A stretch of DNA of 64,000 nt from Candidatus Latescibacterota bacterium (GTDB taxonomy: Bacteria; Latescibacterota; UBA2968; UBA8231). A model generated the notes under the pieces. The model searched no databases and was not told the origin of the DNA. It saw nothing but the letters and a program-made list of their open reading frames with translations. Position 1 is the first letter of the stretch. The number at the start of each line of letters is the position of its first letter. The stretch is taken from positions 832,001 to 896,000 of the forward strand of contig CBDCXV010000010.1 in the NCBI GenBank assembly GCA_965223905.1, given 5' to 3'. Below, piece after piece: positions 4,932 through 63,789 of this stretch. Position numbers and translations under genes: made by a program.

Positions 4932-5720
4932 TTAGCCGCCCGCGGCCGCAAGCGGCTGAATGCGAAACTTGACCACGCCCCAGCTGCTCCCTTCGACCGC
5001 AGTGGGGGTGGACTCGCCGGACTCGGTGGACTCCTCCCCCTCCGGCCCGGTCCCTGTTTCCGTCGACTCCGACTCCCCTGTTCCCCCCGTCGACAGCGTC
5101 ATCAGCCGCTCGGGAATGCTTCCGGGCGTTCCCAGCTCGACGCTGCCGTCGTCCCATCCGCTCGCTTCGGTCGCGGTTTCCCACGCCTGTTCAAGCGAGC
5201 CGTCGGTGTCGAACTCGACCCGCACCATCGCCGCCTTCTGCTTGTTGTCTCCCGCCAGGGGAGCGCCGCTGCCGTCATCCGCGGAGTCGACCAGGTTTCC
5301 GCCCGCCCCGGGGTCGCCGTCGTAGAGGCGCAGCTGCAGCTTGCTGTTGGGCAGCGCCACCGCGGTCGCCACGACGTCGGGATCGGCGCTGATCTGCGAG
5401 CGCGCAGCGCCGTAGTTGGCGATCAGGAACGCCTCCCCCGGGGCGATGCTGCCCTCGCTGAGCTGGAGCATCACCGTCTCCTCGCCGTCTTTCCCCGTTT
5501 GCGTGATGACCCAGCCGCTGAGATCCCGCGCCGAGGACCCGCGGTTGTAGAGCTCGATCCACTCGTCGGCGCTCGAGGACTCGCTTCCCATCCACATAAG
5601 CTCGCTGAACACCACGTCACCCGGTTCCGCCGCAGCGACCGGGGTGCTGAAGGGGGCCGCTCCCAGCAGGAAGGCCAAGAGCAGGCTGGTACACCTCAAA
5701 ATGGTTCGGGCAGGTTTCAT
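4932..5720 (-). CDS. Secreted lamin-tail-domain (LTD) protein with C-terminal TAVEGSSWGVVK tag
   Basis: Signal peptide ending AAA; VVFSELMWMG, DEWIELYN, DLSGW, GTPG motifs; start taken as ATG 5720. Confidence 0.85.
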   Translation of the reverse strand: MKPARTILRCTSLLLAFLLGAAPFSTPVAAAEPGDVVFSELMWMGSESSSADEWIELYNRGSSARDLSGWVITQTGKDGEETVMLQLSEGSIAPGEAFLIANYGAARSQISADPDVVATAVALPNSKLQLRLYDGDPGAGGNLVDSADDGSGAPLAGDNKQKAAMVRVEFDTDGSLEQAWETATEASGWDDGSVELGTPGSIPERLMTLSTGGTGESESTETGTGPEGEESTESGESTPTAVEGSSWGVVKFRIQPLAAAGG

Positions 5721-6038
5721 GTCGCAGTCTCCTTTTTGGTGTGAAGGTTTCCGATTCCCTGCGAATCGGCTGACTGCGACCTGCAATTCCTGTGCCGCTT
5801 GCGAAGGCATCTCCTGGAGCGGTCCCAAGGCCTTTTTTTACAGGAGGTTACGCACCAGATCCCCCTCCCGGGCTCGAGCGGCCTTGCGGCACCAGGCCCA
5901 CACAGGTGTCACCGGAACCACATATCCGGCGGGAATGTCCCGCAGCGACGGCGACCATTCCGGGCAGGCGCTGATGTCGCCTGCGGCTGCATTGACGTAC
6001 CCTTCGCCACGATCCCCGAAACCCGGAAAGGAGAGGTC

Positions 6039-6995
6039 GTGAAGATTCTCCTGCGCCAGTCCGATCTGTCGGACGAGTACCTGCGCTTCGCGGCCCAGAT
6101 CGGGGCCGACGGCATCGACATCCACAACGCCGAGAGCGTCCCCGGCTGGATGGAGCAGGGGTACCCGGATGCCGATGAGCTGAAAAGGATCAAGGAGCGG
6201 ATCGAAGGGGCCGGCCTGCGGCTCTACCGGCTCGCGCCCCCGGACGAGCCGTGCAACTTCATGCTCGGCCTTCCCGGCGGGGAGAAGGACATCGACGACC
6301 TGATCCGCACCATCGAGATCATGGGCCGGCTCCGCATCCCCTTCCTGTCGACCCCCTTCCACTTCGACCACCCGGGCCATCGCGGCGGCCAGCTGTTCGA
6401 GCACCGCGGCGGCTACAAAATGGGCGGCTTCAGCGCCGACAGGATGAACGCCAGTTTCGCCGCCGAGCCCTGGAACCCGCCGGTCTCCATCGAGGATCAC
6501 TGGCAGCGCTCCCTGGAGATGCTGCGGGCCCTGGTCCCGGCCGCGGAGAGCCACGACGTCAGGCTGATCACCCACCCCGGGGATCCGCCGCTGTCCAACT
6601 GCTACGTCTCCCCCCAGCGCTGGACCGACCTTATGGATCTGGTCCCCAGCCCGCACAACGGCCTGCTCTACTGCGTCGGCACCCGCTACGAGTCCGGGGT
6701 CGACATTCACGAGGACATCCGCCGCTACGGGCGCAAGGGGCAGATCTTCCACACCCACATCCGCAACGTCCGCGGCCAGATCCCCACTCACGGCGGCTAC
6801 CAGGAGGTGGCCATCGACGACGGCGACATGGATCTGCTTTCCGTGCTGCACACCCTGCGGGAAGTCGGCTTCGACGGCGGCCTCCAGCTCGACCACATGC
6901 CCAGCTTCGACGGCGACGACCGGCACCGGAGGATCGCCTGGGCGCACGCCGTCGGGTACGTGCAGGCGCTGCTCGCCGCCATGGGGCTCAGGTAA
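6039..6995 (+). CDS. Mannonate dehydratase-like (UxuA family)
   Basis: GTG start after GGAGAGG; HPGDPP, HTHIRNVRG, DDGDMD, DHMP motifs. Confidence 0.85.
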   Translation: MKILLRQSDLSDEYLRFAAQIGADGIDIHNAESVPGWMEQGYPDADELKRIKERIEGAGLRLYRLAPPDEPCNFMLGLPGGEKDIDDLIRTIEIMGRLRIPFLSTPFHFDHPGHRGGQLFEHRGGYKMGGFSADRMNASFAAEPWNPPVSIEDHWQRSLEMLRALVPAAESHDVRLITHPGDPPLSNCYVSPQRWTDLMDLVPSPHNGLLYCVGTRYESGVDIHEDIRRYGRKGQIFHTHIRNVRGQIPTHGGYQEVAIDDGDMDLLSVLHTLREVGFDGGLQLDHMPSFDGDDRHRRIAWAHAVGYVQALLAAMGLR

Positions 6996-7043
6996 ACCGC
7001 ACCTTAGCCGAGCCCTGATTTTTTTCTTGTGAAATCGCATGGC

Positions 7044-7072
7044 TTGACCCTTCTTATACAACATAGTAGTAT
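7044..7072 (+). promoter_or_regulatory. Sigma70-type promoter
   Basis: TTGACC-17 bp-TAGTAT upstream of AGGAG RBS (7125) and the 7139 start. Confidence 0.7.
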
Positions 7073-7138
7073 GAAGCACATCGCTGGAAAGCTGCGTCCG
7101 CAGCGTCACCTTCACCCTTTTCATAGGAGTTGATCGAG

Positions 7139-8053
7139 ATGAAAAGAATTGCGTTGATCGCGGCCCTGGCCGCGGTCGTGGCCATGGTAGGTAGCTCGTG
7201 GGGTGGAGATCCCACCTATACCTACGAGATCCCCCACATCCCAGATAGCATGGTGCCGGAGGTAGATGGCGATCTAAGCGATCCTGCCTGGACCAACTAC
7301 CCCATGGAGTATGCCATCGTCCACCCGGGTGGAGATATTCCCCTGACGAATGGACGAGGGATTGGAGCGGACGTCCCCGATGCCGCCGACTACTCCGCGA
7401 CGATCAAGTGGGGCTGGAACGATGGCACCAACAAGCTGTACATAGCCATCGACGAGTTCGACGACATCTTCTACGTCGACACGCCGGCTGAGTGGTGGAA
7501 TGATGATGTCTGGCAGATCCACATGGATGGCAAGCTCTGGAACGGCCCTTACGAGTACACAAACCAACTACCGGAAGAGGAGTGGGGGGCCCACGCGCAA
7601 CAGTGGGAGTTCACACAGGGCGAGCACTGGTGGGGTGCTGCGAACAACATCAATCTCGAAACTCCCAAGGGCAACCAGGAACCTGCCATGGAGCCCTGGG
7701 CCAAAGTCGCGTTCGGAAACACGCCCCCCCAGAACGGCGATACGAACGTGAATCTGATCTACGAGCTTTACATCACTACCTGGGAATACATCGACTCGAC
7801 GGACAACAGCAAATCCGTTCCATGGGACATGGAAGGCGGAAACGTCATGGGGTTGCTGCTGTCGCGTTATGAAGACGACGAAGGAGGAGCCACCCTGAAT
7901 GTAGAATGGCAGACTGGAGGCGCGTACCAAACGACAGATTCTTCGACCTTCAATGAGGTCGTCCTCCTCTCTCCCGGCGAAGTTGAATGGCCCGACTCGG
8001 GAACCGCGGTCGAGTCTTCCACCTGGGCTCGCATCAAAGCCTCCTTGTTCTAA
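7139..8053 (+). CDS. Secreted CBM9/DOMON-like protein with C-terminal TAVESSTWARIKASLF tag
   Basis: Signal peptide; PEVDGDLSD.W, WNDGTNKLYIAIDEFDD, YELYI motifs; Trp/Asp-rich. Confidence 0.8.
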   Translation: MKRIALIAALAAVVAMVGSSWGGDPTYTYEIPHIPDSMVPEVDGDLSDPAWTNYPMEYAIVHPGGDIPLTNGRGIGADVPDAADYSATIKWGWNDGTNKLYIAIDEFDDIFYVDTPAEWWNDDVWQIHMDGKLWNGPYEYTNQLPEEEWGAHAQQWEFTQGEHWWGAANNINLETPKGNQEPAMEPWAKVAFGNTPPQNGDTNVNLIYELYITTWEYIDSTDNSKSVPWDMEGGNVMGLLLSRYEDDEGGATLNVEWQTGGAYQTTDSSTFNEVVLLSPGEVEWPDSGTAVESSTWARIKASLF

Positions 8054-8907: not shown

Positions 8908-8946
8908 AGAACTGCAGGACTACAGGAACCGCAACCGGGGGCAGGA

Positions 8947-10818
8947 TTGCTGATGTACTCGTCTCCCCGCCGAGGATGGCGCGGCTGTTGCTGCGGGTTC
9001 TCGTGCTGGATATGGGGTTCGGTCGTTTTTCTCTCGGGATTCTCCGTGTCCGGGAGCGTTCAGCGGTGGACCTTCGGCGGTGCAGGCGCAAGCTGGCAGG
9101 ACGGGGGGATCATGGAAGCATTGGAGATAACCCCCGGGGCGACTCTGCAACCCGAGTATACCAGCCCGGTTGAGAACCTCGCCGCGACGGCCGCCGCACG
9201 CGGAGGCGGCATCGATACACCGATCCCCACCCTGAAAAGCACCTCGCTGCCGGGAAACCAGCTTTCCAACATGATAGACGGTAATCCCGACGTCGCCTTC
9301 AAGTCCGAACTGAGCAACAACCAGGGTGTGTTCCTGGTGCTGGACCTGGGCGCTTCGCTGGGGGTCAACCGGATCCTGTTCTACACGAGAGACCCCGCAA
9401 ACACGGAAGACTACCCTTTTCTGCAGGGATACAGGCTCTCCGTCAACGACGGCAGGCCGGAGACCCAGAGCCGGGCAGGACCGATCTGGACGGTGGTGGA
9501 CAGAAGGTCCCCCAACAGGTCTCCCCGGGTAGAGGTGGAGTTTCCGCTGCAATTCATCCGCTACATCAAGCTGGAATCCCTCGTTGTCTTCGACTGGGAG
9601 ATCGCGGAATTCGAGGTGTACGGCGAGGGGTTCGCGCCGAATGCGGTCTATACTTCCCAGGTGCTCGAGGTGCCCGGACAAGCCGGCCAACCTGGCGCGG
9701 CAAACTGGGGAAAATTGAGATGGTCCCACATCACCGATCCGGATGCCTCGATAGTCCTTCAGGTCAGGAGTGGTGAGACCGCTGATCCCAATCGGTACTT
9801 TCAGATCGAAGTGGACGACCTTACCCGGGCGCGCACCCTGGAGCCGATCACCAGGGAGGAATACGAGGAACTGGGGGAGACCGACGCCGTCATGGAGGCG
9901 GACCGGGACCACTGGAGCGACTGGTCCGAGCCTCTCCCGCCATCCGGAGAGGAGCAGATAACCGCTCCGGCCCCCCGGTCATACTTCCAGTTCAGAGCCT
10001 TCTTCCAAAGCCGCTCCCTCTCCGCCAAGGCCGAGTTGGGTTCTCTGTCCATCGAGTATTCGGTTCCGCCGCTGGCCCGGGAGATAACGGCTGCGATCTC
10101 TCCTCGCCAAACCCAGGCGGCGATCAGTACTCCGTTCACCTACACACTCGAGGCCGATATCGACCCGGACGCCGGGCACATCGGGTTCGACGCACTCGAG
10201 ATCGCCATGCCTGCCCGGCCCACCTTCGAGGAACTGAGGATCGACGGTCTTCCCATCGCCCTGGATCCCGACCGGGTCACGGCTGCGTCGGACCGGCTTG
10301 TTCTGCTGTTCCCCGAACACCGCGTCGACAGGGACGGAACCCTCCTCGAGGTGGACTTCGATTGCCCGGTATTCTCCTACGGAACTGCGTTCGACGGAAA
10401 GGTGTTCGATACGACGTCCGATGAACTGCCCCAGATCGTCGTGCCGGACGAGACCGTCGACACACGAGCTCTTTCCGTCGAAGTGGTTTTGAAGGAGTGG
10501 ATTCTTGCCTCGGTCCGGGTCCGCTCGAATCCCTTTACGCCCAACGGCGATGGAACCAATGACGCGGCCTTCATTTCCTACTCGATACTGAAAGTCTCGG
10601 AGCCTATTGACGTCTCCGTCCAGGTGTACGATCTGGCCGGTAGAGTGGTGAGGGATCTTTTCTCGGGAAGCGAAGCAAGCGGTGAACATCAGCACCTCTG
10701 GGACGGACGCAACTCCCAGGGAACCCTGGTACCGCCGGGATTCTATATTGGACGAGTCAAGGCGGATGCCTTGGCGATAACCGAACAGAGAAGCACGGGG
10801 ATAATGGTGGTCTATTGA
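8947..10818 (+). CDS. Secreted discoidin/F5-8-like protein with FlgD-Ig/CHU_C (T9SS type B-like) C-terminal domain; start uncertain
   Basis: MIDGNP, LVLDLG, IAEFEVYG; C-terminal NPFTPNGDGTND...VYDLAGRVVR...WDGRN...PGFY. Confidence 0.85.
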   Translation: MLMYSSPRRGWRGCCCGFSCWIWGSVVFLSGFSVSGSVQRWTFGGAGASWQDGGIMEALEITPGATLQPEYTSPVENLAATAAARGGGIDTPIPTLKSTSLPGNQLSNMIDGNPDVAFKSELSNNQGVFLVLDLGASLGVNRILFYTRDPANTEDYPFLQGYRLSVNDGRPETQSRAGPIWTVVDRRSPNRSPRVEVEFPLQFIRYIKLESLVVFDWEIAEFEVYGEGFAPNAVYTSQVLEVPGQAGQPGAANWGKLRWSHITDPDASIVLQVRSGETADPNRYFQIEVDDLTRARTLEPITREEYEELGETDAVMEADRDHWSDWSEPLPPSGEEQITAPAPRSYFQFRAFFQSRSLSAKAELGSLSIEYSVPPLAREITAAISPRQTQAAISTPFTYTLEADIDPDAGHIGFDALEIAMPARPTFEELRIDGLPIALDPDRVTAASDRLVLLFPEHRVDRDGTLLEVDFDCPVFSYGTAFDGKVFDTTSDELPQIVVPDETVDTRALSVEVVLKEWILASVRVRSNPFTPNGDGTNDAAFISYSILKVSEPIDVSVQVYDLAGRVVRDLFSGSEASGEHQHLWDGRNSQGTLVPPGFYIGRVKADALAITEQRSTGIMVVY

Positions 10819-13226
10819 AAACGATTGCGAACATTCTCGGTTCTCTGCTGCTCGGGTTCGTCCTCATCGCTCTCGACACCGCCGTGTCATCCGGAGCGGA
10901 ACTGGTTTTCGAAGCCGATAGGATCGGCTCTGAATGGCGGTCTCCCCCGGGCACCTTCGTCCTTTCCCAAGGGGAGATTCGTCCCGCCTACATCCGGGGC
11001 GAACGGGATTCTGTAAACGCCGCCGCCAACGCCGAAGGTTTCGTCGCCGAGAGGGACAGGGATGGCAATCCCACCCGGTTCGGGGGCATCTTCGTCCCCG
11101 ATTGGGTAACGGTTCTGCCATCCAATTTCGAAGAGCTGCCGGTTATCATGGACGGAGACCGCAGCACGGCCTGGGCTCCGTCAGGTGACGATCCCCTCAG
11201 CACGTGGTGGCTGCTGATAGATCTCGGGCGTGCGGTCCGGGCAACCAAGGTACGCCTCGTGTTCGCCGAAGACGGGCCACCCTTCGAGATGTTCGAACTC
11301 TACAAGTCGACCGGTCAGCAGGCCTTCACCAAGAGGTCGGGCGTGCTGGATTTCAGGACCATACACCGCTCGACCCGGCCAAACTTCGATCACGTCCTGT
11401 CCTACGAGGTGGAAGAGCAGCCGGTGCGCTATCTGTACCTGCAGGCCATGGAAAAGACAGAAGGCGCGAAAGTTGCCGAGCTGGAGGTGTTCACCCTGGG
11501 CGACAACATCGCCCTGGGCGTTCAGGACCGCGGTGGACTGGCGCGCAGCGTTGCCTCCCGGGGGGGGGGGTTGGCCGAGAACATCGAGGTCTGGGAGATG
11601 GTGGACGGAGATTACCTGACCTTCTTCAATCTCAGCACCCCCGCCTACAACAACTGGTGGCAGTGGGAGTCCAAGGGATGGTTCCACCTGGATCTTGGCA
11701 ACCTCTTCTGGGTAGACCTGGTGCGCATCGTGCAGCAGCACGAGCTCTACAGCTCCAGGTTTCACCCCCTGCAGAGCTACGTGCTCTACGCGTCGGACGC
11801 TTCCCCGGCGCCGCCTGGATCCGGAGGCATACTCGGGCCGTTCCTGTCTCCTTTGGTGGGAGACTTCGTTTGGTGGGAAGTCGGGAATCTTTCCAGGAAC
11901 CCGCCCGAAGGTGAGACCCAGCAGAGATTCCTGTTCGAGGAACGGCTTTCGCCGCAACCGGTCCGCCACATTTTTCTGAGCCATCGCAACCTCTTCGGCG
12001 GCAGCGGCATCGGAATGATCGCCAACATCGGAGAGTTTCAGGTGTACGGCCGGGGGTTCCTCCCGGAGATAGTGCTCACCTCGGGCTTCATAGACATGGG
12101 CGCAGTACGGAACATCACGGAAATCTCATGGGATGGCGACGTTCCTCCTGGCACCAGGATACAGTTCAGGAGCCGGACGGGGGAGGAATTCCGTTGGGAG
12201 GTCACCTACTGGAAGAAACTGGGGGCCAACATCAGGAACAAGGAAGTGACCAAGGAGGAATGGGAGGCATTCTCCGCCACCAGGAAAGGTGCCGTGGACA
12301 GCACGGTGGTCCTTGAGGGCTGGAGTCCCTGGAGTCAACCCTACCTCGCGCCCGGGGAGACCTTCGTCTCGCCGAGCCCGAGAAAGTTCGCTCAGCTCGA
12401 TGCCCGGCTCATCACCTCGGATCCCGACGCTCGAGCTTCGTTGCAGCGTGTGAGGCTGATTCACCGGGACCCGGTCGCCGCCGCCCTGGTCGGTGAGATC
12501 CATCCCAGGCGCGCCCTCCCGGGCGTGGAAGAAGTGTTCACCTACCATATCAAGCCGCAGATATCTGCCGGCAACCAGGAATTCGACGATATACTGATCC
12601 TGCCCCCTTCCTCGGCCACGCTCCTCGACGTATTGATAAGCGGAACTTCGGTGGGCGACGCGATAGAAGTGATGCCAGCAGGCGAAGACTCGCTGTGGAT
12701 TCGCCTGCCCTCGGCACTGGATCGCCAGGCCGCATCCAACGACCCCGATCTGGCGGTCGAGGTCGTGTTGGCGACCAGGGTGTTTGCGAACGGGACGCTG
12801 ATCGAGTCTTTCGCAGGCAACTCCGCCAGCCCCGGCTCCTGGCAGCGCGTGGACCCCAAAGACGGCAGGTTCGAGAACCTGACCGTCCTGCTGCCCTACA
12901 GTGAGGTAAGGGTGCTCGGGGATATCAGCATTGTTCCGTCCACGTTGACTCCCAATGGCGATGGGGTCAATGACGCCACCGCGATAACCTTCACCCTTTT
13001 CCAGATCGACCAGTCAAGTCCCGCGACCGTGACGATTTTCGACGTCGGCGGACGGACGATCAGAAACATGCGCCATCAGGGTGCCAGCGGCGTCAACCGA
13101 ATCGTCTGGGACGGCTCCGACGAATCGGGAGAGATCGCGCTTCCCGGTACGTATATATGTCGCGTCGACATCGACACCGACAGCGGCACCAGGACTGCCG
13201 TCCGAAGCATCGCCTTGGCCTACTGA
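10815..13226 (+). CDS. Secreted protein with two discoidin-like domains and a FlgD-Ig/CHU_C C-terminal domain
   Basis: Signal peptide; MDGD..LIDLG..AELEV and VDGD..HLDLG..GEFQVYG; C-terminal TPNGDGVND...WDGSD...PGTY. Confidence 0.87.
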   Translation: MKTIANILGSLLLGFVLIALDTAVSSGAELVFEADRIGSEWRSPPGTFVLSQGEIRPAYIRGERDSVNAAANAEGFVAERDRDGNPTRFGGIFVPDWVTVLPSNFEELPVIMDGDRSTAWAPSGDDPLSTWWLLIDLGRAVRATKVRLVFAEDGPPFEMFELYKSTGQQAFTKRSGVLDFRTIHRSTRPNFDHVLSYEVEEQPVRYLYLQAMEKTEGAKVAELEVFTLGDNIALGVQDRGGLARSVASRGGGLAENIEVWEMVDGDYLTFFNLSTPAYNNWWQWESKGWFHLDLGNLFWVDLVRIVQQHELYSSRFHPLQSYVLYASDASPAPPGSGGILGPFLSPLVGDFVWWEVGNLSRNPPEGETQQRFLFEERLSPQPVRHIFLSHRNLFGGSGIGMIANIGEFQVYGRGFLPEIVLTSGFIDMGAVRNITEISWDGDVPPGTRIQFRSRTGEEFRWEVTYWKKLGANIRNKEVTKEEWEAFSATRKGAVDSTVVLEGWSPWSQPYLAPGETFVSPSPRKFAQLDARLITSDPDARASLQRVRLIHRDPVAAALVGEIHPRRALPGVEEVFTYHIKPQISAGNQEFDDILILPPSSATLLDVLISGTSVGDAIEVMPAGEDSLWIRLPSALDRQAASNDPDLAVEVVLATRVFANGTLIESFAGNSASPGSWQRVDPKDGRFENLTVLLPYSEVRVLGDISIVPSTLTPNGDGVNDATAITFTLFQIDQSSPATVTIFDVGGRTIRNMRHQGASGVNRIVWDGSDESGEIALPGTYICRVDIDTDSGTRTAVRSIALAY
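11560..11570 (+). repeat. G11 homopolymer inside the CDS
   Basis: Eleven consecutive G (CGG GGG GGG GGG, encoding RGGG). Confidence 0.9.
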
Positions 13227-13280: not shown

Positions 13281-15830
13281 ATGAGGAAAACCGCCCGGGT
13301 ATTTCTGACTGGGTTTGCCTTTCTTTCACAGTCCGCCGCATTCCGCGCGGAGGCCCAGCAGCCGGAGACTTACTTTGCCGACGTTCCCATCCGGCTCGAG
13401 ACCCTCGACCCTGTTGTAAAGAAGGATTATCGCCTGCAGGATCTCTACTATCAGTATCAGTACGAGCCGTGGCGGTTCACCAACTACGCCCGGGACCACT
13501 ACCAGAGATACACGAGTGTCGACCTGGAGGGCGAGACGTGGTACGATGTCTTCGGCACGTACATCACCAGGGGTTTCGCGCTCTACTCCTGGAGCCAGAC
13601 GCAACCCCAGGCATTCGGCAGCGACGTTTTCAAACGGCACCAGTACGGAAGCTGGTTCAACAACCTCGTGGTCGCGAGTGACCGCAAGGGCCAATACCAC
13701 ATGGCCCTCACGGTCGGGGACGAGATTCGCACCACCCTCACCCCGCTGACCTTTTCGAAGCCTTCCTTCAGCGGCTTGCAGTGGGATTTCCTGTCGGACA
13801 AATACGAGCTCACCGCCCTGGCATCCCGCGTCAGCAGCCCCGGGTTCGCCGCGCAGTTTCGCGAACAGAAGGAAGGCCAGACCCTGACCTCCCTGGTCAA
13901 CCTCTTCGGCGGCCGCGGCACGGTACAGCTGGGCGACTTCGTCAAGGCCGGAGCCACCTACGTCAATGCGCAGGTAAACCGCACCGACCAGGCCTTTTAC
14001 GACAAAGGTCTGATCGAGGGGCAGTTGAGCTCTGATCAGAACCGCGACCTGATCAGGCGGATCACCATTCGCATCAGCGACCATTCACCCGGGGACGGCA
14101 AGGGAGGGGGCAGGCTGTTCTCGGAGAGGGTGTATTTGACGAGAGAGGACGAACCGCGGGCGCGCGAGGACGTCCGTCCGCTGGTCCAGGGTGGACTCAG
14201 GCGGGGCGGGGCCCTGGCCGCCGACGGCGGCGAGACCATCGAGCTGACCTACACCCTGCCGGAGCCGGAGAATATCAGGGAAATCGAGTTCGAGCTGGTG
14301 GTTTCCAACGACTACGTGATCGAGGTCACTTCCAATCTGCAGGAGCCCTTCTTCCTTCCGGTGGCTCAGGCGCGGGGGAACGTAACCGACGGATCCAACC
14401 AGACGGTGGTGCGCTTCGACTACGGTCTGCCCACCGCCCACGAGGTGGCAGGTCTGACTCTCGAGGTGAAAGACCTTCTGGGCATCCGGATGACCGGCGA
14501 GTACGACATCAGCCGCAGACGCAGGAAATCGCCCAATCCGAACTTTGCGTTTCACGGGAGCTCATTGATCAAGTCGAAGGCGTGGTACGGGGACCTCAGC
14601 TGGAATCGCTATCCCTATTTCGCCAGGGGAGAGGCGTTTTCCATCGAGCCCGAGTACCAGACAAGGATGTTCATCACCAACGAAATCGGCGTAATCAACT
14701 ACGACAACCCATCCCAGCACCTCTTCGAGTTCGTCGACGACAACGACGACGCCGACCGCACTCCCGACTGGAACCGAAGGTTCTCGGAACGCGACAACGA
14801 CGGCATCTTCCCCGGCTGGGACGAGAACAACGATTTCCGGCCGGACATCAATCGGAACACGAACAAGATACCGGACTACGAAGAGCCGTTTCTTCGGTAT
14901 TCGGTCGACCCCCCCGAATTCCTCTTCGGCGTCGACATGAACAACAACACCATCATCGATCGCTTCGAAGACGACGAGATGCCCGACTACCCCTACAAGC
15001 CGGATCACCACGGGTACAACGCCTACATCGGGACTGAAATCGTGCCCGACGTTCGCCTCCTCGTCGGCAGATCGCATGAAGAGCTCTGGTCGACCGACGA
15101 ACGCGCACGGGCGACCTACGCCCTGTTGACCGCCGAGAGGGTATTCCCCGGTCTTGGAAAGCTGAGAGTGTCCGAGCGAACGAAATTGGCGAAAGACGAC
15201 CTTCGGGACAACGTGCTTCAGTGGGTGCAGAGGAGGGGCACGTTCGGCCAGGACCGCGTCCTGCAGAAAGATCCCCTCGTGGCCCAGGACACCTGGATCA
15301 ATACAACCTTCCTGGGCTTCGACTACACCCGGATTTCCAATTTCAACAGTATCAACATCGTCAAGTACGAGTTCTACGATCAAAGGGACCCTGCCGAGGA
15401 CATGGCGGACCTGTCCCGGTTTCTGGGAATCATCAACAAGGCGGATTACACCTTGTCATTCAAAGGCCTGGAAATCCGACCCAAGATCAAGAGCATGTAC
15501 CGGTACCGGACACCCTTCATGAAGAACGAAAAGGATGTCAACGAGCTCACCGAGTTCCTGTCCATCGAGACCGACATTCCGGTGCTGAGCCGGTCCCGGC
15601 TGCAATTGGGCGTGGAGCAGGTCTTTTTCAACGATTGGACCGACGAGCAAAATTTCAACTCCCGAACCCTCGCCATGCAGTTCTCCAACTTCACCGCCTA
15701 TCTGGGATATGCAGTGACGACCAATGTCGGATTCTTGGTGGAGAACAGAAACTTCAGGGGTGCCTTCGAGGGCCGCCCCAGCGAGCGATTCACGAACGCA
15801 TTCATCAACATTTTCGCGGGTCTGGAATAG
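13281..15830 (+). CDS. Large exported protein, probable outer-membrane beta-barrel with acidic Ca-binding-like loop
   Basis: Signal peptide ending AEA; alternating beta-strand patterns; DDNDDAD/DNDG/DENND/DMNNN motifs; ends FINIFAGLE. Confidence 0.75.
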   Translation: MRKTARVFLTGFAFLSQSAAFRAEAQQPETYFADVPIRLETLDPVVKKDYRLQDLYYQYQYEPWRFTNYARDHYQRYTSVDLEGETWYDVFGTYITRGFALYSWSQTQPQAFGSDVFKRHQYGSWFNNLVVASDRKGQYHMALTVGDEIRTTLTPLTFSKPSFSGLQWDFLSDKYELTALASRVSSPGFAAQFREQKEGQTLTSLVNLFGGRGTVQLGDFVKAGATYVNAQVNRTDQAFYDKGLIEGQLSSDQNRDLIRRITIRISDHSPGDGKGGGRLFSERVYLTREDEPRAREDVRPLVQGGLRRGGALAADGGETIELTYTLPEPENIREIEFELVVSNDYVIEVTSNLQEPFFLPVAQARGNVTDGSNQTVVRFDYGLPTAHEVAGLTLEVKDLLGIRMTGEYDISRRRRKSPNPNFAFHGSSLIKSKAWYGDLSWNRYPYFARGEAFSIEPEYQTRMFITNEIGVINYDNPSQHLFEFVDDNDDADRTPDWNRRFSERDNDGIFPGWDENNDFRPDINRNTNKIPDYEEPFLRYSVDPPEFLFGVDMNNNTIIDRFEDDEMPDYPYKPDHHGYNAYIGTEIVPDVRLLVGRSHEELWSTDERARATYALLTAERVFPGLGKLRVSERTKLAKDDLRDNVLQWVQRRGTFGQDRVLQKDPLVAQDTWINTTFLGFDYTRISNFNSINIVKYEFYDQRDPAEDMADLSRFLGIINKADYTLSFKGLEIRPKIKSMYRYRTPFMKNEKDVNELTEFLSIETDIPVLSRSRLQLGVEQVFFNDWTDEQNFNSRTLAMQFSNFTAYLGYAVTTNVGFLVENRNFRGAFEGRPSERFTNAFINIFAGLE

Positions 15831-15834
15831 GGGC

Positions 15835-17835
15835 GTGACCAGCGGTGGCAGAAAACGAACCCTGGCCCTGTTTCTGAGCGCCTTCGTCTCCGCATCTGCG
15901 AGCGGGGAGCAATGGGTCGTAGGCAACCAGCAACACCCCTGGGAGGAATGGGGCGGTGAAATGGCTCAGAGCCTGAGAAAGGGAGGAAAGGAACTCCAGG
16001 ACGAATGGGTCGATTGGGTCGGATTGGGGTTCCAGCAGGCAGGTCAGGAAGCGATTGTCGCCAGGATCGACGCGACCACGGATCCAGGCTGGCTGCAGCC
16101 GGTCCGGATAGATCCATCGATCAATCTGTCCTTCGGGCTCGCGCAACGCTCTCTCCGGGCGAAACCCATCTCCGACCGAGGCCACTTCGGGGAAGCTGCC
16201 CGCACCCTGCCCGGCCCGATCCCCGCCCCTCTGAATGCCATCGATGGCGATGCCGGAACTTTCATCTACAACAGGTCCGGGGTGGAGTTCAAAAACCACC
16301 AGACACTGTATTTCGATCTGGCCTGGCCCTTTCCGGTCAACCGCGTTCGCTTCTATCCCCGAACCGGATTCGAGCTCTTCTATATCCCCGCCTATACTTT
16401 CGTGATCAGCGAGGGGGATCCCGAAGATTATGTGCCGCTAAAAAGGGATCCGACCGGATACGACCTCTGGGATCAGGGCGTCAGGACATGGTCGACCGTC
16501 GCCGAGGTACCGATCAACACGGAAAGCGTTGTGGACCTGCACTTCCCCAGGCAATACGTGCGCTACCTCTCTCTCCAGGACACGCTCACCTCCGAAGACG
16601 CGAAGACGCGCTGGGAGATCGCGGAGTTCGAAGTATACGGGGAGGGCTACCTGCCGGGCTTCACCTACACCTCTGCAATACTCCCCTTTGAGAATGCGGC
16701 CAACTGGGGCGGACTGCACTGGCATGCCGAGGTCGACCCGGGAGCTTCCTTGAGCCTCCGGACACGAACCGGGCAGACTCCCAACCCCTACCGGTATTAC
16801 ATCAACACGGGCATAGGGCCGACAGGGCGGCAGGAAGTCACCCGGGAGGAATATCGCGCCACCGCGGACGACTTCAACCGGAAAGCGCTTGCAGGTCTGG
16901 TGACCGAGGATACCGACAACTGGAGTTTCTGGTCCCTGCCCTACACCGAAAGCGGTCAGACGATCGTGTCACCGGCGCCAGCGAGGTTCTTCCAGTTCGA
17001 GCTCTCCGTCACATCCACGCCCGATGCCCGGGCACGCGTCGATTCCGTGGTGATCGAGTTCTCCAGTCCTCCCGTGGCACAGGAGTTGGTGGGAGAGCTG
17101 GGGTACGGAGAAGTTCAGCCCGGCCGCTGGGAGCAGTTCCGCTACGCCATTCTGGCGCGCTTCGGGCCTGCGGATACGGGGTTCGACGCCGTTCGGATCG
17201 TCACGCCCGAGGAGGTGGACGAAGCCTCGATCCGCAACTTGGTGGTGGACGGCACGGCTGCGTCACCGGACTCCCTGCATCTGGCGGCCGACGGGTTTAC
17301 CCTCTTCCTGCCCGAGCACCGCGGTCCATCCGGCGGGGTCGACAGCACCCTTGTCGAGATCTCGTTCGCCACGCGCCTGTACGTCCACGGGACCAACCTG
17401 TCAGGCTCCGTCTTCGACAGCAGGACGCCGGAGGCGCTGGCTCAGGGCATTCTACCCGGTGACGCCACCGCGGCGCTGGACATCGACAACCTGCAAGTGG
17501 AGTGGGAACTGGGAGGGGCCCTGCTGGGTTCGGCGGTCGCAGCGCCCAATCCGTTTACGCCCAACGGGGACGGCGTCAACGATCGAGTGCAGATCGACTA
17601 CGGCCTGTTCCAGGTGGACCATGCAATACCCGTGACATTCACGGTCTATGACCTGAGCGGACGCGCGGTGTATGCGGTGACCCGAAGCGAGCAAAGCGGG
17701 CCCGGGTCCATACGCTGGGAGGGAACCGACGGGGCGGGCGCTCTCGTGTCGCCAGGTCTCTATGTGTGGCAGATCAAGGCCGATACGGGGGCAGGCGAAT
17801 TCGTGGAAAGCGGATTTGTTTCAGTTGCGTATTGA
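15835..17835 (+). CDS. Third discoidin-like protein with FlgD-Ig/CHU_C C-terminal domain
   Basis: GTG at 15835, signal peptide; AIDGD, FDLA, WEIAEFEVYGEG, NWGGLHW, PNPFTPNGDGVND, PGLY. Confidence 0.87.
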   Translation: MTSGGRKRTLALFLSAFVSASASGEQWVVGNQQHPWEEWGGEMAQSLRKGGKELQDEWVDWVGLGFQQAGQEAIVARIDATTDPGWLQPVRIDPSINLSFGLAQRSLRAKPISDRGHFGEAARTLPGPIPAPLNAIDGDAGTFIYNRSGVEFKNHQTLYFDLAWPFPVNRVRFYPRTGFELFYIPAYTFVISEGDPEDYVPLKRDPTGYDLWDQGVRTWSTVAEVPINTESVVDLHFPRQYVRYLSLQDTLTSEDAKTRWEIAEFEVYGEGYLPGFTYTSAILPFENAANWGGLHWHAEVDPGASLSLRTRTGQTPNPYRYYINTGIGPTGRQEVTREEYRATADDFNRKALAGLVTEDTDNWSFWSLPYTESGQTIVSPAPARFFQFELSVTSTPDARARVDSVVIEFSSPPVAQELVGELGYGEVQPGRWEQFRYAILARFGPADTGFDAVRIVTPEEVDEASIRNLVVDGTAASPDSLHLAADGFTLFLPEHRGPSGGVDSTLVEISFATRLYVHGTNLSGSVFDSRTPEALAQGILPGDATAALDIDNLQVEWELGGALLGSAVAAPNPFTPNGDGVNDRVQIDYGLFQVDHAIPVTFTVYDLSGRAVYAVTRSEQSGPGSIRWEGTDGAGALVSPGLYVWQIKADTGAGEFVESGFVSVAY

Positions 17836-25722: not shown

Positions 25723-25950
25723 CCTGCCGAGAAAACCATGAACCCCCGCCGCCGGCCCCGACACCCGGCGCCTCTCTTACTTGCCCCGCGGTCCCGGTGG
25801 CCGCGACCTGACCTGCCGAGAAAACCATGAACCCCCGCGCCTGCGCCGGCATCCGGCGCCGCCCTTCCTTACCGCGGCCCCGGCGGCCGCGGATTTACCT
25901 CGGAGAAACCACATGAACCCTCGCGTCCGCGCCGGTATCCGGCGCCTGCC
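25698..25950 (+). repeat. Three imperfect ~87-bp tandem units spanning a gene junction
   Basis: GGCCGCGACCTGACCTGCCGAGAAAACCATGAACCCCCGC occurs twice, then a degenerate third copy (GGAGAAACCACATGAACCCTCGC) carries the real start. Confidence 0.85.
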
Positions 25951-26818
25951 CCTGCTTGTCGCGGCAGCCCTGTTCGCCACGCAGGCCGCCGCCCACTTCC
26001 CCGAAGACACCGTGCACCAGCTGTTCCAGTTTCCCCGGGACCGGGTGCCGGTGATGGACGGGGACTTGAGCGACTGGGACATGCTGCCGGCCGAGTACAT
26101 CTTCGACCTCGAGAAATACACCCAGCACAAGGAGCAGACCAGCCTCGAGCACAACCCGGCCGATCTCAACATCGTGCGCGCCGCCGCGGCCTGGAACGAC
26201 GAGTTCAACCGCCTCTACTTCATGGCCGAGGTCTACGACGACGTGGTCCGCTTTCACAAGGAGAACCCCGACTCGCTCGACCTCCCGTTGTCGCGGCTGA
26301 CCGGTTCCAACGTCCACGGGGCCGACATCTTCGAGATCGTCATCGACGCCGACCACGGGGCGGAGCGCGTCGTCGGCTTCTCGGAAAACGACGAGCGGGA
26401 GCTGCGCTACCGCAGCGCCTTCACGCAGAACTACCACCTCTACATGCCTCCGCTGAACGGCTACTACTGGCACTGGTACTGGGGCAAGCCGCTGTGGACG
26501 AAGGAGGAGGCCTGGTCCGCGGTCGGCTGGAGCTTTCCCGGGGAGCACGAATCCGCCGGCACCGTCACCTACGAGTGCTACCTCACCCCGTTCGACGACC
26601 TGCACCCGGACGGGCCGGAGCAGAGCGTTCTCCACGACCTGCAGGAGGACGCCGTCATCGGCCTGGCCTGGTCCTTCATCGACGCCGACACCAGCAACAC
26701 CACCTCCGACGCCTTCTGGAGCATGACCGGCGACGTCCAGATGTACTGCATGGGTGAATTCTTATCCGACTTCCGGCTCATGCCGGTTGACACCTCGCTG
26801 TTCCCGGAAAAGCGATGA
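25913..26818 (+). CDS. Secreted CBM9/DOMON-like protein, same family as 7139..8053
   Basis: Signal peptide; PVMDGDLSDW, WNDEFNRLYF, IDADH, YECYLTPFD. Confidence 0.8.
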   Translation: MNPRVRAGIRRLPLLVAAALFATQAAAHFPEDTVHQLFQFPRDRVPVMDGDLSDWDMLPAEYIFDLEKYTQHKEQTSLEHNPADLNIVRAAAAWNDEFNRLYFMAEVYDDVVRFHKENPDSLDLPLSRLTGSNVHGADIFEIVIDADHGAERVVGFSENDERELRYRSAFTQNYHLYMPPLNGYYWHWYWGKPLWTKEEAWSAVGWSFPGEHESAGTVTYECYLTPFDDLHPDGPEQSVLHDLQEDAVIGLAWSFIDADTSNTTSDAFWSMTGDVQMYCMGEFLSDFRLMPVDTSLFPEKR

Positions 26819-30797: not shown

Positions 30798-31652
30798 GAA
30801 CCTATCTCAAAATCACAAAATTTAATCTTGAGTTCTGATTGATGATAATGTATCATTATTTATATGGTTACTTTGACCGACAAGCAATGGGAGCGAATCC
30901 GTCATCACTTTCCTGAAGAACATCGTCCCAAAAGCCATCCGGGCCGCAAACCAGTTGCCACACGTGAGGTTCTTGAAGCCGTCCTTTGGATTCTCAATAC
31001 CGGTGCCCAATGGCACATGCTGCCGCAGGGCTATCCGAACTACAAAACGGTGCATCGTCGCTTTCAAAATTGGTGTCGCAACGAGGTGCTGCGCGATGTT
31101 CTCATGGACTTGGCCAATACCCTTCACGAGCAAGGGGACCTGGACGAATCGGAAGCTTTCATCGACGGCATGTTCTCGGCGGCCAAGGGTGGAGGTGCCG
31201 ATGTCGGCCACAGCAAGCGAGGTAAGGGGGTGCGGGTCATGGGGATCGTGGACGGCAATGGGCTTCCCTTGTCGGTGAGCACGCATGCAGCGAACCATCA
31301 TGAAGTGACGCTGGTTCAGTTGACCTTTGACTTTTACCTGATCGAAGACAAACCTGACAACTTGATCGGTGACAAAGCGTACGACAGCGATTCGTTGGAT
31401 GAAGAACTTAAGAAAGACGGGATCGAGATGATCGCCCCGCATCGCCAGAATCGGACCAAGAAAAAGACTCAGGATGGACGGCGATTGCGGCGTTATGTGC
31501 GGCGTTGGATGGTTGAGAGATTCTTTGCTTGGCTTCAATGGCAGCGTCGAGTGATCACTCGCTGGGAATTGTATCCGGAGAATTTCCTTGGCTTCGTCCA
31601 ACTTGCATCCATTTTGATTTTACTTAAACAATTTCAATTTTGAGATAGGTTC
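30798..31652 (+). mobile_element. IS5-family insertion sequence, 855 bp
   Basis: Perfect 16-bp terminal IRs GAACCTATCTCAAAAT / ATTTTGAGATAGGTTC flanked by a 2-bp AC duplication. Confidence 0.93.
30864..31643 (+). CDS. IS5-family transposase
   Basis: LTDKQW, WILNTGAQW..LP, FIDG, GDKAYD, RWMVERFFAWL..RR (DDE). Confidence 0.95.
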   Translation: MVTLTDKQWERIRHHFPEEHRPKSHPGRKPVATREVLEAVLWILNTGAQWHMLPQGYPNYKTVHRRFQNWCRNEVLRDVLMDLANTLHEQGDLDESEAFIDGMFSAAKGGGADVGHSKRGKGVRVMGIVDGNGLPLSVSTHAANHHEVTLVQLTFDFYLIEDKPDNLIGDKAYDSDSLDEELKKDGIEMIAPHRQNRTKKKTQDGRRLRRYVRRWMVERFFAWLQWQRRVITRWELYPENFLGFVQLASILILLKQFQF

Positions 31653-34133
31653 ACTACTGTCGCTACTGGAAGTGACCACACAGTCCAGCTGTGGGATGCG
31701 GTCACAGGAGAGAATATCGCCACCCTTGAAGGACATGAGAGTCAAACAGGGGAACTTGACAATTATGTGTGGACACTCTCGTTCTCACCTGATGGAGTTC
31801 TTCTCGCTTCCGGAGCCGGGGATGGAATCATACTCTGGGACGTAGCGACGCGCACCGAGGTCGCTGCCTTGCCAGCAAGAATGGGCCCAGTGACAGCTAG
31901 GATCACGTTTTCTCCGGATGGCACCACCATTTTCGCCAGAACAGGCGGTTGTAACTACCGATTGTGGGATGTAGAGGCCAAGGTAGAGATAGACACCCCT
32001 GTATTAGCCCCCCTCATGCTAGGTGAATTGCAGTCACGGGGAGGAGCGATTCTCTCCCCTGATGCGACACTGGTCGCTTGCACAGTTTGGAATTGGGATC
32101 GGGACACCGTTGACCGGGTTGAGGTGTGGAATTTGAGAACAGGCGAAAAGATCGTCACCCTGAAAGCATACGGGTGCCTGGAGGGATCGCTGTTGTTTTC
32201 ACCCGATGGGACCTCGTTGGCCTGCGGATCTGGTGAAAGGGGCTTCCTCCTTTGGGACGTTGAGAGTTGGAATCGCGTCCCCATCGAGGAGAGGGACGGC
32301 GAGACAGTCATTTCCATTTCGTTTTCCCCCGATGGAACTACCCTGGCTTCCGCCCGGTGGGATGGAACGATCAAGCTGTGGGATGTGGCGACGGGGAAGA
32401 GTATCGCCACCATTGAGGCCCATGAAGGGGAAGTCCTTTCCGTCTCGTTTTCGTCCGATGGAGCCACTTTGGCTTCAGGTTCCCACGATGGAACGGTCAA
32501 GCTGTGGGACGGAGCGAATTGGCAAAGAATTACCTCTTTCTCAGGGCATAATGGTAATCTCGACGCGGTGGCATTTTCTCCCGATGGAACTACTCTCGCG
32601 GCCGCGTCATGGTATGGAACAGTCGCGTTGTGGGAGATGGCTACACTCAGAAATACCGTCACGCTGGGACCCTTCGGTTCGGTGAATTCCGTGGCGTTTT
32701 CTCCAGATGGCACCACTCTGGCCGCCGGGTACCAGAGCGGCACGTACGGATATCTCAGGCTGTGGGACTTATCGACGAGGCAAGTCTCCACCATCGCCTG
32801 CCGGGGCAATGGTGCTCGGGGACTGCCGTTGGCCTTCTCGCACGACGGTGCCCTCGCGGTTGGATGGGAGGGAAGGGTCGGTCTCTGGGACGTGAGGACG
32901 GAGGATAGGGTGGCCATCTTGGAAGGGCATACAGCCGTTGTGAAGTCGGTTTCGTTTTCTCCAGATGGAACTTTAGCTGCCGGGTTACGGGATGGAACGG
33001 TTCATCTATGGGACGTAACGAGAGGGGAAAGGGTTGCGACTCTCGAAGGACATGGAGGCGTGATTGGTTCGGTATCCTTCTCTCCCGATGGAGCCACCTT
33101 GGCCTCGGGGTCAGGGGATACGGTTCATCTCTGGGACGTGACGAGAGGGGAGAGGGTTGCAGCCCTCGAAGGACATAGATGGGGGGTTCGTTCGGTGGCG
33201 TTTTCGCCGGATGGCACCATCCTCGCTGCCGGGTCTGACCATGGAAGCAAACTGTGGGACGTGGCGGCGCAAACCGAGATCGCCTCTCTCGAAGGCCACC
33301 GGCATCTGGTCATCTCTGTTGCATTCTCACCTGATGGAACAACGCTCGCTTCCTCGTCCCTGGACGGCACGATTCTCTTGTGGGATATGTCGCCCTACAT
33401 ACGCTCTGCACCCACAGCGATCCAATCTCCGTTCTCTCCGTTACCGAGGCCGACCGCCCTGCTCGGCAACTTCCCCAACCCCTTCAACACCACGACCTTG
33501 ATCGAGTACCACCTTGCCGAGCCCGGGGGCGTGCGCTTGGTGATCCACAACGCGCTCGGTCAGCCCGTGCGGACTCTGGTCGACGACTCTCGTGGGGCCG
33601 GGCACCACTCGGTCGAATGGGACGCACATGACGACGGCAGCACCCTCGTTGCCTCCGGGGTCTACCTGGCCCGCCTCAGCCATCCTGGAGGTGCCCAAAC
33701 GCGGCGTCTGATGTTCCTGAAGTAGCCCTCCGGTCAACCCACCGAGCATCCCCCGTCGAGGCAGCCTTGGCGCCCCCTCTTTGTCCGAACGCGACGCGAC
33801 CCCGCACGCGACCGCCGCCACCGAACTCGTTCCCGAAGCCAGCCATAGCCGGTAGGGCCAAGGAGCGGCATTCCCACAACCCCCTTGTGGTTGGCTGTTT
33901 TTCGTTGACAACCGGGGCCTGGGCTCTGTACCGTGCCCCTCGCTGACGCTTGTTCCGCCGTAAAACCCGTCTGTCGGGTCTCCTGCTGAATACAACAGCT
34001 GCAGTACCGAGGCCCCGGGCTAGCTATCCGTGGTCGGCGAATAGGCGGGACCTTCCTCGCTCTTCCGCGTGCAAGCGTCAGTCATGCCCGGCTCCGGTGA
34101 GACGGGCGAGTTGTTCACCAAGAGGGTGATCCC

Positions 34134-63380: not shown

Positions 63381-63789
63381 CTACTCCATCTCCAGGGAGG
63401 CCTTGATCCGGCCCCAGGATACCGACTCGACCGCGCTGTCCTCCGGTGCGTCGGCGGACAGCAGGAGCCCATCGAGAAAGACATCCGCTTGAAGCCTGTC
63501 TATGGCTATGTCCGCGTCCTTTCCGTCAGACATGGCTTCTGGTATCCAGTACAACTGCCCCTCCTCTTCAAGATCACAGTCAATCACCCTGATCCCAAAG
63601 CCGATCACTTTTCCCGCCTCCAGATCGCTGACCTCGTTATCTTCGGCGCTATCCCATCCTCCGCCCCATTGGTCGAACGGGGTGACGTACAGCTCGATCA
63701 CGCTGATGGTCGGGGTTTCTCCGGCAACGCCACCGCCTCCCTCCCCGTAAGGAGGCAGGGCATTCCAAGCGAACTTTTCCGTAGTCACC
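63381..63789 (-). pseudogene. C-terminal part of a CBM9/DOMON-like secreted protein with SAVESVSWGRIKASLEME tag, truncated by IS630
   Basis: IELYVTPFD, LEAGKVIGF; the 5' end abuts the IS terminus. Confidence 0.75.

Follow-up and report, generated by a model that had tools for sequence, protein, structure and literature searches.

A WGxIK tail at the C-termini of unrelated exported proteins in a Latescibacterota genome: a probable, hitherto undescribed envelope address or docking tag

C-terminal sorting signals decide which proteins reach the bacterial surface. In a 64,000-nucleotide stretch of DNA from a Candidatus Latescibacterota bacterium (assembly GCA_965223905.1, contig CBDCXV010000010.1, positions 832,001 to 896,000; here called the window), two exported proteins of unrelated fold and one protein fragment share a short C-terminal peptide with an invariant tryptophan and lysine. 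Does this tail direct its carriers to a particular place and, if so, by which machinery? The original prediction, made from the letters of the window and its open reading frames (ORFs), described a novel sorting tag of the form [TS]AVExx[ST]Wxx[IV]K and proposed an amphipathic helix that serves export, anchoring or processing. Our analysis of the source genome and of other lineages indicates that the tail is very likely a genuine modular tag of exported proteins. Found on more than 100 unrelated exported proteins, it probably serves the cell envelope as an address or docking tag that has not been described before.

The source genome (G000) comprises 7.92 Mb in 11 contigs, and the window corresponds to G000:C10:832001-896000. 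Its tail-bearing proteins, and a paralogue that lacks the tail, are as follows.

4932..5720, minus strand: LTD-domain exported protein of 262 aa from MKPARTIL..., carries the tail (ORF with start and signal peptide; Pfam LTD, E 3.8e-13)
4968..5003, minus strand: tail core of the LTD protein, TAVEGSSWGVVK, followed by 11 residues and the stop (tail-profile match G000:C10:836956-837021)
7130..8053, plus strand: CBM9-fold exported protein of 307 aa, carries the tail (signal peptide; AlphaFold2 model with CBM9 structure 7nwn as best Foldseek match)
8003..8050, plus strand: tail of the CBM9-like protein, TAVESSTWARIKASLF, the final 16 codons ahead of the stop (ORF sequence; modelled as disordered, predicted local distance difference test score [pLDDT] <50)
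63381..63788, minus strand: 135-aa C-terminal fragment of a CBM9-like paralogue, tail present, no signal peptide (member of body cluster 0)
63384..63437, minus strand: tail of the fragment, SAVESVSWGRIKASLEME (strict motif and tail profile)
25913..26818 (ORF from 25781), plus strand: CBM9-like paralogue without the tail, C-terminus ...SLFPEKR (match to the hidden Markov model [HMM] of the CBM9-like family; classed as having neither the tail nor a type IX secretion system [T9SS] C-terminal domain [CTD])

The ORF of the LTD protein spans 4932-5828 on the minus strand, with a probable start at 5720 and the C-terminus ...PTAVEGSSWGVVKFRIQPLAAAGG. The AlphaFold2 model of the 7130-8053 protein (16-row alignment, mean pLDDT 74.8) is a beta-sandwich, and its best PDB matches are CBM9 modules (7nwn, E 6.5e-10, TM 0.77 on the target). 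Pfam gave no match for this protein or for those at 63381-63788 and 25913-26818. All three tails are present as originally described, on two unrelated folds (Pfam LTD and the CBM9 model) that each have a signal peptide and on the 63381-63788 ORF, which is probably a truncated or broken copy. The paralogue at 25913-26818 does lack the tail, so the tail is separable from the CBM9-like domain.

We counted the motif in the 82,927 stop-to-stop ORFs of at least 50 aa in the source genome. The strict motif occurred 30 times, always 4-11 residues ahead of the stop, compared with a chance expectation of ~0.001 anywhere in this ORF set. For the looser core [ST]W[GAS]x[IVL]K we found 133 occurrences, 108 of them within 14 residues of the stop, where chance predicts 21.5 anywhere and 2.2 near the stop. 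The frequency of the tail is far above chance. A 22-column HMM, whose seeds were picked at C-termini but which is itself blind to stop positions, matched 103 ORFs at an independent E-value (iE) of ≤0.01; 102 of the matches ended within 15 residues of the stop and the remaining one 17 residues from it. At iE≤0.1 there were 115 ORFs, 112 within 15 residues and the other three at 17-20 residues. No ORF of the source genome carried two copies. The enrichment at the C-termini of proteins that largely bear signal peptides is thus larger than had been claimed from the window.

Conservation is concentrated in about 13-17 residues, with the consensus [DGPA]-[TS]-[AVS]-[VI]-[E/x]-x-x-[ST]-W-[GA]-[R/x]-[IVL]-K-[A/x]-[ST/x]-[LF]. 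Tryptophan and lysine were invariant in 37/37 aligned tails and in 103/103 overall. The lysine sits 2-21 residues from the C-terminus, most often 5, and 4-7 residues follow it in 82 of the 103 tails. Synonymous codons vary widely at the conserved positions, with both families of serine codons and four glycine codons in use, which indicates conservation at the protein level and selection on the peptide, not a DNA repeat; 95 of the 103 tail cores of 39 nt are distinct. None of the models in Pfam and NCBIfam, and hence no described sorting-signal model in them, matched the tails even at E≤10, and a PDB sequence search with the tail returned nothing significant (best E 0.27).

The shape of the peptide is where the original prediction failed. 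In the 10-residue core the helical hydrophobic moment was the same as in shuffled sequences (0.346 and 0.345, respectively; 37% of 97 tails above their own shuffle mean), whereas the beta-strand periodicity was strong (0.574 versus 0.339; 95% of 97 tails above their own shuffle mean). The core has a mean hydrophobicity of -0.03 and a net charge of +1.7. In the model of the 7130-8053 protein, residues 291-307 have a pLDDT <50, with linker and tail unpacked from the domain, and 297-306 are drawn as a helix at this low confidence. The strand periodicity, together with the upstream T-A-V-E element, suggests that the tail is a strand or hairpin peptide. Its lack of a transmembrane helix, from which it had been argued to be neither PEP-CTERM nor LPXTG, was confirmed: few and mixed residues follow the lysine, and the core is not hydrophobic.

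The carriers are diverse. After trimming of the last 30 residues, the 95 carriers with a length of 110 aa or more fell into 23 BLAST clusters, with 54, 7, 6, 5, 3, 2 and 2 members and 16 singletons. The largest (54/95) is one CBM9-like family; 22 clusters lie beyond it, and the tail is therefore not confined to one family. Pfam matched 15 of 34 representatives and none of the other 19, the domains being PD40, Lipocalin_4/DUF5640, Temptin_C, CBM9_1, FlgD_ig with CarboxypepD_reg, LVIVD, FGE-sulfatase, Sortilin/BNR and WD40; LTD is a further carrier domain beyond those of the 34 representatives. A crude rule scored the N-terminus as signal-peptide-like in 56 of the 78 tail ORFs that reach 200 aa, compared with 190 of 1500 background ORFs, and among the 22 that failed the rule several have evident signal peptides and others start inside a domain. 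Carriers that are intact begin with Sec signal peptides, and no lipobox was found among the tail carriers of the source genome. These data bear out the view of the tail as a module that follows linkers at the C-termini of signal-peptide proteins with unrelated folds.

Tail ORFs shorter than 200 aa made up 25 of the 103, and only three of these had a signal-peptide-like start. Many copies therefore look truncated, the window's 63381 ORF among them. Several longer tail ORFs start inside a domain or have frameshifted tails. The short and frameshifted ORFs point to either heavy pseudogenisation of the CBM9-like paralogue family or assembly errors.

Close to the tail-bearing proteins of the window lies a gene with a different C-terminal signal.

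8947..10818, plus strand: neighbouring exported protein with a FlgD_ig/CHU_C-like T9SS CTD, ends ...GIMVVY (alternative signal to the tail)

Using an HMM iterated from local FlgD_ig-like CTD examples, we counted 187 ORFs with such a domain in the source genome, 166 of them with the domain at the C-terminus, compared with 115 tail ORFs. A single ORF combined the CTD-like domain with the tail, and the domain is internal there. Within the CBM9-like family 52 members had the tail, 2 the CTD and 17 neither; in the PD40 family these numbers were 8, 15 and 19. Tail and T9SS CTD are thus alternatives within one genome and within individual domain families. As had been noted, the tail is far shorter than a CTD (~20 compared with 70-100 residues). 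Six 40-aa tails gave no match to CTD models of NCBIfam and Pfam at E≤10, and neither did the full-length proteins at E≤1 or 0.1.

The source genome encodes SprA, canonical PorU (NF033707, 617 bits against a cut-off of 420) and PorV, a PorV-family gene following porU; no PorU2 or PorV2 member (NF052324, NF052325) scored above cut-off. It also has a second, longer PorU-like C25 peptidase below the cut-off (the PorU-like genes are L035 7875-11813 and L036 7954-13476). Two classes of T9SS-type CTD were seen in the genome, one ending ...TRKLTLLR/K (in the window at 31644-33725, plus strand) and one ending ...V[AV]Y and matching CHU_C (in the window at 8908-10818, 10686-13226 and 15718-17835, plus strand).

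We then turned to the distribution of the tail within the phylum. Among 30 relatives, the tail profile matched 18/18 genomes of the same family, with 5-129 matches each, and 0/9 and 1/3 (weakly) in two other families of the class. A wider sample comprised 120 further genomes of the phylum in families f1-f14, in which canonical PorU was called at E≤1e-110.

f1: tail 40/40, canonical PorU 38/40
f2: tail 0/29, canonical PorU 0/29
f3: tail 0/2, canonical PorU 0/2
f4: tail 0/13, canonical PorU 0/13
f5: tail 1/1, canonical PorU 1/1
f6: tail 2/2, canonical PorU 2/2
f7: tail 1/1, canonical PorU 1/1
f8: tail 0/5, canonical PorU 4/5
f9: tail 5/6, canonical PorU 5/6
f10: tail 1/13, canonical PorU 12/13
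f11: tail 3/3, canonical PorU 3/3
f12: tail 1/1, canonical PorU 1/1
f13: tail 3/3, canonical PorU 3/3
f14: tail 1/1 (weak), canonical PorU 1/1

The tail was found in 58 of the 120 genomes, in 10 families, and each of these families has canonical PorU. Canonical PorU was present in 57 of 59 tail-positive genomes; the two misses, both in f1, are 76% and 87% complete. In f2-f4, which are without canonical PorU, the tail was absent from all 44 genomes. These three families keep only the long PorU-like form below the cut-off, and are poor in type A CTDs (f2 has 7-16 per genome, f1 23-123).

Outside the phylum we searched a genome collection for a sister form with a degenerate DNA pattern for [ST]WGxIKALYR, which matched at least 131 stretches. 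Among the matches listed, metagenome-assembled genomes (MAGs) carried the labels Eisenbacteria (many), Krumholzibacteriia, Latescibacteria, Coatesbacteria and Gemmatimonadota (2), and single contigs were labelled Verrucomicrobiota, beta proteobacterium and Patescibacteria. The expectation that the tail would be found in candidate phyla related to the Fibrobacterota, Chlorobiota and Bacteroidota (FCB) holds for the ALYR form, which occurs in several such MAGs; Poribacteria were not seen among the matches listed. Likewise among the matches listed, 70 of 89 unique in-frame occurrences stood directly at the stop and 13 more 1-5 residues before it; of the six exceptions, four continue for another 48-211 residues, one ends in a 12-residue variant and one is cut off by the contig end. 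On the contig labelled Patescibacteria (L081), two adjacent ORFs have ...TWGAIKALYR ~80 residues from the start, followed by ~200-aa domains; the bin label of this contig may be wrong. Five ALYR-form genomes of other lineages held 4-7 C25 peptidase matches and 3-51 tail-profile matches each, and a PorU-like ORF lay within 8 kb of an ALYR-type tail gene at 4 of 75 non-overlapping loci, all four below the NCBIfam cut-offs.

Searching 1.84 billion representative proteins with the tail profile yielded 23 matches at E≤0.001. In several of the 20 that we inspected, the motif was arranged as 2-5 tandem copies with spacers of ~10 residues (P0013, P0014, P0018), as a copy after each repeated NTF2-like domain (P0020, P0021, P0027) or near the mature N-terminus plus a C-terminal copy (P0019, P0031), and several of these metagenome proteins have lipoprotein signal peptides. 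Proteins with several copies are over-represented in this list, since each copy adds to the score. Judged by these arrangements, the motif can work away from the extreme C-terminus.

What, then, might read the tail? We lean, tentatively, towards a peptide address that T9SS-type envelope machinery would read in place of the CTD, because the tail alternates with the CTD, the families that carry it have PorU, a lysine lies near the end, the core has strand periodicity and the modelled tail is unpacked from its domain. The tail, in the form [DGPA]-[TS]-[AVS]-[VI]-x-x-x-[ST]-W-[GA]-x-[IVL]-K, usually with 4-7 further residues before the stop, is tethered by a flexible linker to Sec-exported soluble proteins of many folds. 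After export it would be recognised as an exposed beta-strand or beta-hairpin peptide, with the invariant tryptophan and lysine as presumed contact residues. The reader would be a T9SS-type outer-envelope component of FCB-related lineages, either the PorU-family sortase/attachment complex or a shuttle working with it. It would deliver the protein to its predicted destination, the outer membrane or cell surface, or keep it there, possibly with cleavage of the tail.

The link of the tail to T9SS is circumstantial, and a number of observations weigh against it. SprA and PorV bind the seven-stranded fold of the CTD, which a peptide of ~20 residues is too short to build. The excess of CTD genes around tail loci is modest: one lay within 5 kb of 27 of 76 loci, compared with 17.0±3.8 under random placement (maximum 30 in 500 trials). 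The 14 PorV-family genes of the source genome are no closer to tail genes than chance (median ~17 kb), and three of the four PorU adjacencies at ALYR-type loci belong to one conserved cluster of tandem small tail proteins. PorU is not sufficient for the tail, since f8 and f10 are mostly PorU-positive and tail-negative; five genomes of f2, f8 and f10 gave 1-4 tail matches each at E≤5, which is chance level (2-4 in the four f8/f10 genomes). Moreover, f2-f4 all belong to the class of the source genome, and the contrast between PorU and tail there may reflect one loss, a single evolutionary event. Finally, the tandem, internal, N-terminal and lipoprotein copies are easier to reconcile with a binding motif for repeated use than with an export signal confined to the terminus.

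None of the candidate readers that we tested by distribution or position held up. An Omp85/PD40/peptidase-MA protein encoded after porU-porV occurs in 118 of 121 genomes, in all families including the tail-less ones, and is not tail-specific. The PorV family was rejected with 6-34 copies per genome in 31/31 genomes searched, and the number of C25 peptidase genes is single both in the tail-bearing G033 and G038 and in the tail-less G036 and G041. In a five-genome tree, one PorV/PorP-like clade (support 98/95, 9 rows) contained only tail-bearing genomes. However, intermediate relatives of this clade occur in tail-less f10 (E 1e-42 to 1e-56), and at 3 of 8 loci examined its gene stands directly after one with a CTD, the order expected of a cognate shuttle; it adjoins CTD genes and not tail genes. 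In G000 and G033, the end of a CTD-bearing ORF of 566-635 aa is overlapped by a gene for a PorV/PorP-SprF-like barrel (L218 6074-8618, L219 5808-8487, L222 9298-12274), the layout of cargo and cognate shuttle known for type B CTDs in Flavobacterium.

The main rival to a T9SS-read address, which we regard as somewhat unlikely, is a retention or docking motif independent of T9SS. Here the non-covalent partner of a short linear peptide would be a receptor or polymer of the envelope (an outer-membrane protein, peptidoglycan or lipopolysaccharide); the peptide would hold periplasmic or surface proteins in place, with higher avidity when repeated. Such a motif would explain the tandem arrays, the copies after repeated NTF2-like domains, the paired N- and C-terminal copies, the lipoprotein carriers and the L081 contig with the motif ahead of a ~200-aa domain, and it agrees with the strand periodicity of the core, the invariant tryptophan and lysine and the presence of PorU without the tail in f8 and f10. 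The source genome argues otherwise, having no two-copy ORF and no match at iE≤0.1 that ends more than 20 residues before the stop. Furthermore, the terminal precision of the ALYR form (70/89 of those listed at the stop, 13 more 1-5 residues off) is characteristic of signals that are read from the C-terminal end, no receptor turned up, and the multi-copy proteins come from a list biased towards them by summed scores.

It is clearly unlikely, in our view, that the tail is instead a tag for a dedicated processing enzyme outside the PorU family, such as a sortase-like transpeptidase or a C-terminal protease that cuts at the tail and attaches or releases the protein. The design is that of a sorting signal, in that numerous unrelated exported proteins share a single tag, which reaches 5-129 copies per genome within a lineage, the ALYR form ends exactly at the stop among the matches listed, and the patchy occurrence among families of the phylum is what a losable gene system would produce. 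Against this stand the number (2-21) and sequence of the residues after the lysine, both variable in the source genome, and the tandem and internal copies elsewhere. In addition, no recurrent candidate enzyme, PorU-like genes apart, was found beside tail genes at 76 loci of the source genome and 75 of other lineages.

The mechanism of the original prediction, a membrane anchor in which a C-terminal amphipathic helix acts as in PBP5/PBP6, is very improbable. The helix drawn at residues 297-306 of the 7130-8053 protein and the net charge of the core are in its favour, but that helix has a pLDDT <50, the helical moment of the core equals that of shuffled sequences and its mean hydrophobicity is only -0.03, its invariant tryptophan and lysine and conserved glycine are unlike degenerate membrane-targeting helices, and lipoproteins that are already anchored carry the motif too. 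The notion that the tail is no signal at all (a structural end-piece of one family, a DNA repeat overlapping gene ends, or chance), to which the 54 of 95 carriers in one CBM9-like family might lend itself, is refuted by 22 further body clusters with about ten Pfam families, a disordered tail separated from its domain by a linker, the synonymous codon variety, 30 strict matches where 0.001 were expected and the occurrence of the tag in other phyla.

Among the known signals closest to the tail is the T9SS type A CTD (TIGR04183 / PF18962; FlgD_ig-like outside Bacteroidota; carried by PorV and cut by PorU). Both stand at the C-terminus of Sec-exported proteins of many folds, the tail takes the same position in the same domain families of the same genome, and within the phylum the tail was found only in families with canonical PorU, a contrast that may stem from a single event. 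Type A CTDs have a nearly invariant, functionally important lysine close to the C-terminus, according to PMC10994853; the tail lysine near the end is likewise conserved, a resemblance that is positional only. The two differ in size and fold, a seven-stranded sandwich of 70-100 residues being out of reach for ~20 residues, in the invariant tryptophan of the tail and its failure to match CTD models at E≤10, and in the absence of the tail from PorU-bearing f8 and f10 and its tandem and internal copies elsewhere. Type B CTDs have cognate PorP/SprF-like shuttles, according to PMC12618676, and share with the tail the notion of a separate shuttle for each kind of C-terminal signal that a secretion system uses; unlike them, the tail genes are without a linked shuttle gene.

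The beta-signal of outer-membrane proteins, recognised by the beta-barrel assembly machinery (BAM), has a terminal aromatic residue on a beta-barrel carrier, whereas the last residue of most tails is E, K, R, N, D or Q and their carriers are soluble domains. The C-terminal signal of the type I secretion system acts without a Sec signal peptide, unlike the tail, whose carriers of at least 200 aa are signal-peptide-like in 56 of 78 cases and in more by eye. PEP-CTERM/exosortase, LPXTG, GlyGly-CTERM and MYXO-CTERM are tripartite signals of a motif, a hydrophobic transmembrane helix and a basic cluster. Like them the tail is short, C-terminal, lineage-restricted and found on dozens to hundreds of unrelated exported proteins, but it is without the transmembrane helix, the basic end cluster, an NCBIfam match or a nearby cognate sortase gene. 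PBP5 and PBP6 have C-terminal amphipathic-helix anchors, and MinD a membrane-targeting sequence; these too are short C-terminal peptides without a transmembrane helix, and the tail differs from them in its invariant tryptophan and lysine and its lack of helical amphipathicity. In the accessible literature we found no publication on the tail motif or on sorting in these phyla, and general T9SS papers only (PMC10994853, bioRxiv 10.1101/483123, PMC12618676).

Recurrent neighbours at the 76 tail loci of the source genome were CTD proteins, a protein of ~900-1020 aa without Pfam match (11 loci) and DUF6785/DUF6784 membrane proteins (7 loci). These neighbours go with the CBM9-like family rather than with tail genes in general. 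CBM9-like tail genes cluster with 650-900-aa proteins bearing CHU_C/FlgD_ig CTDs at G000:C1:134001-152000, C10:978001-992000 and C1:1352001-1364000, and these clusters resemble a polysaccharide-utilization-locus-like site of uptake or degradation. A homologue search with the CBM9-like protein of the window gave 10 matches, too few to inform on alternative C-termini. In many of the 54-plus members of the family, a histidine is the first residue after the predicted signal-peptide cleavage site (...AAA|HFPED, ...SASA|HSAV; for example 25781-26818), and weaker Foldseek matches of the CBM9-like protein include heme-binding CBM9-like subunits (ethylbenzene dehydrogenase, Nxr). The family may bind a metal or cofactor rather than, or besides, sugar. 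A further locus, G000:C2:357225-366624, holds two tail genes, three proteins without Pfam match, a PorV-like barrel gene, an ExbB/MotA gene and a gene for a 1081-aa TPR protein with YfiO/BamD-like and weak Slam-TPR matches.

In this study we describe a tag on about 115 ORFs of a 7.9-Mb genome, a number comparable with the 166 ORFs that end in a T9SS domain. Its carriers include carbohydrate-binding modules, propellers and a protein resembling sulfatase-modifying enzymes. The tag recurs in several candidate phyla without cultured members and is invisible to annotation pipelines. It is possible, though doubtful, that the WGxIK tag belongs to a previously unrecognised envelope-sorting or anchoring system outside T9SS, as a portable beta-hairpin docking peptide of ~20 residues that is placed C-terminally, in tandem or between domains, has its own receptor or enzyme, and serves ~5-130 proteins per genome in at least four or five uncultured FCB-related phyla. 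To our knowledge, every C-terminal sorting signal described so far has led to a dedicated machine (sortase, exosortase, rhombosortase, T9SS). If the tag is linked to T9SS, then this system can use a minimal peptide signal. Recognising the tag would improve prediction of the surface proteome in these lineages and allow a concrete search for the reader protein.

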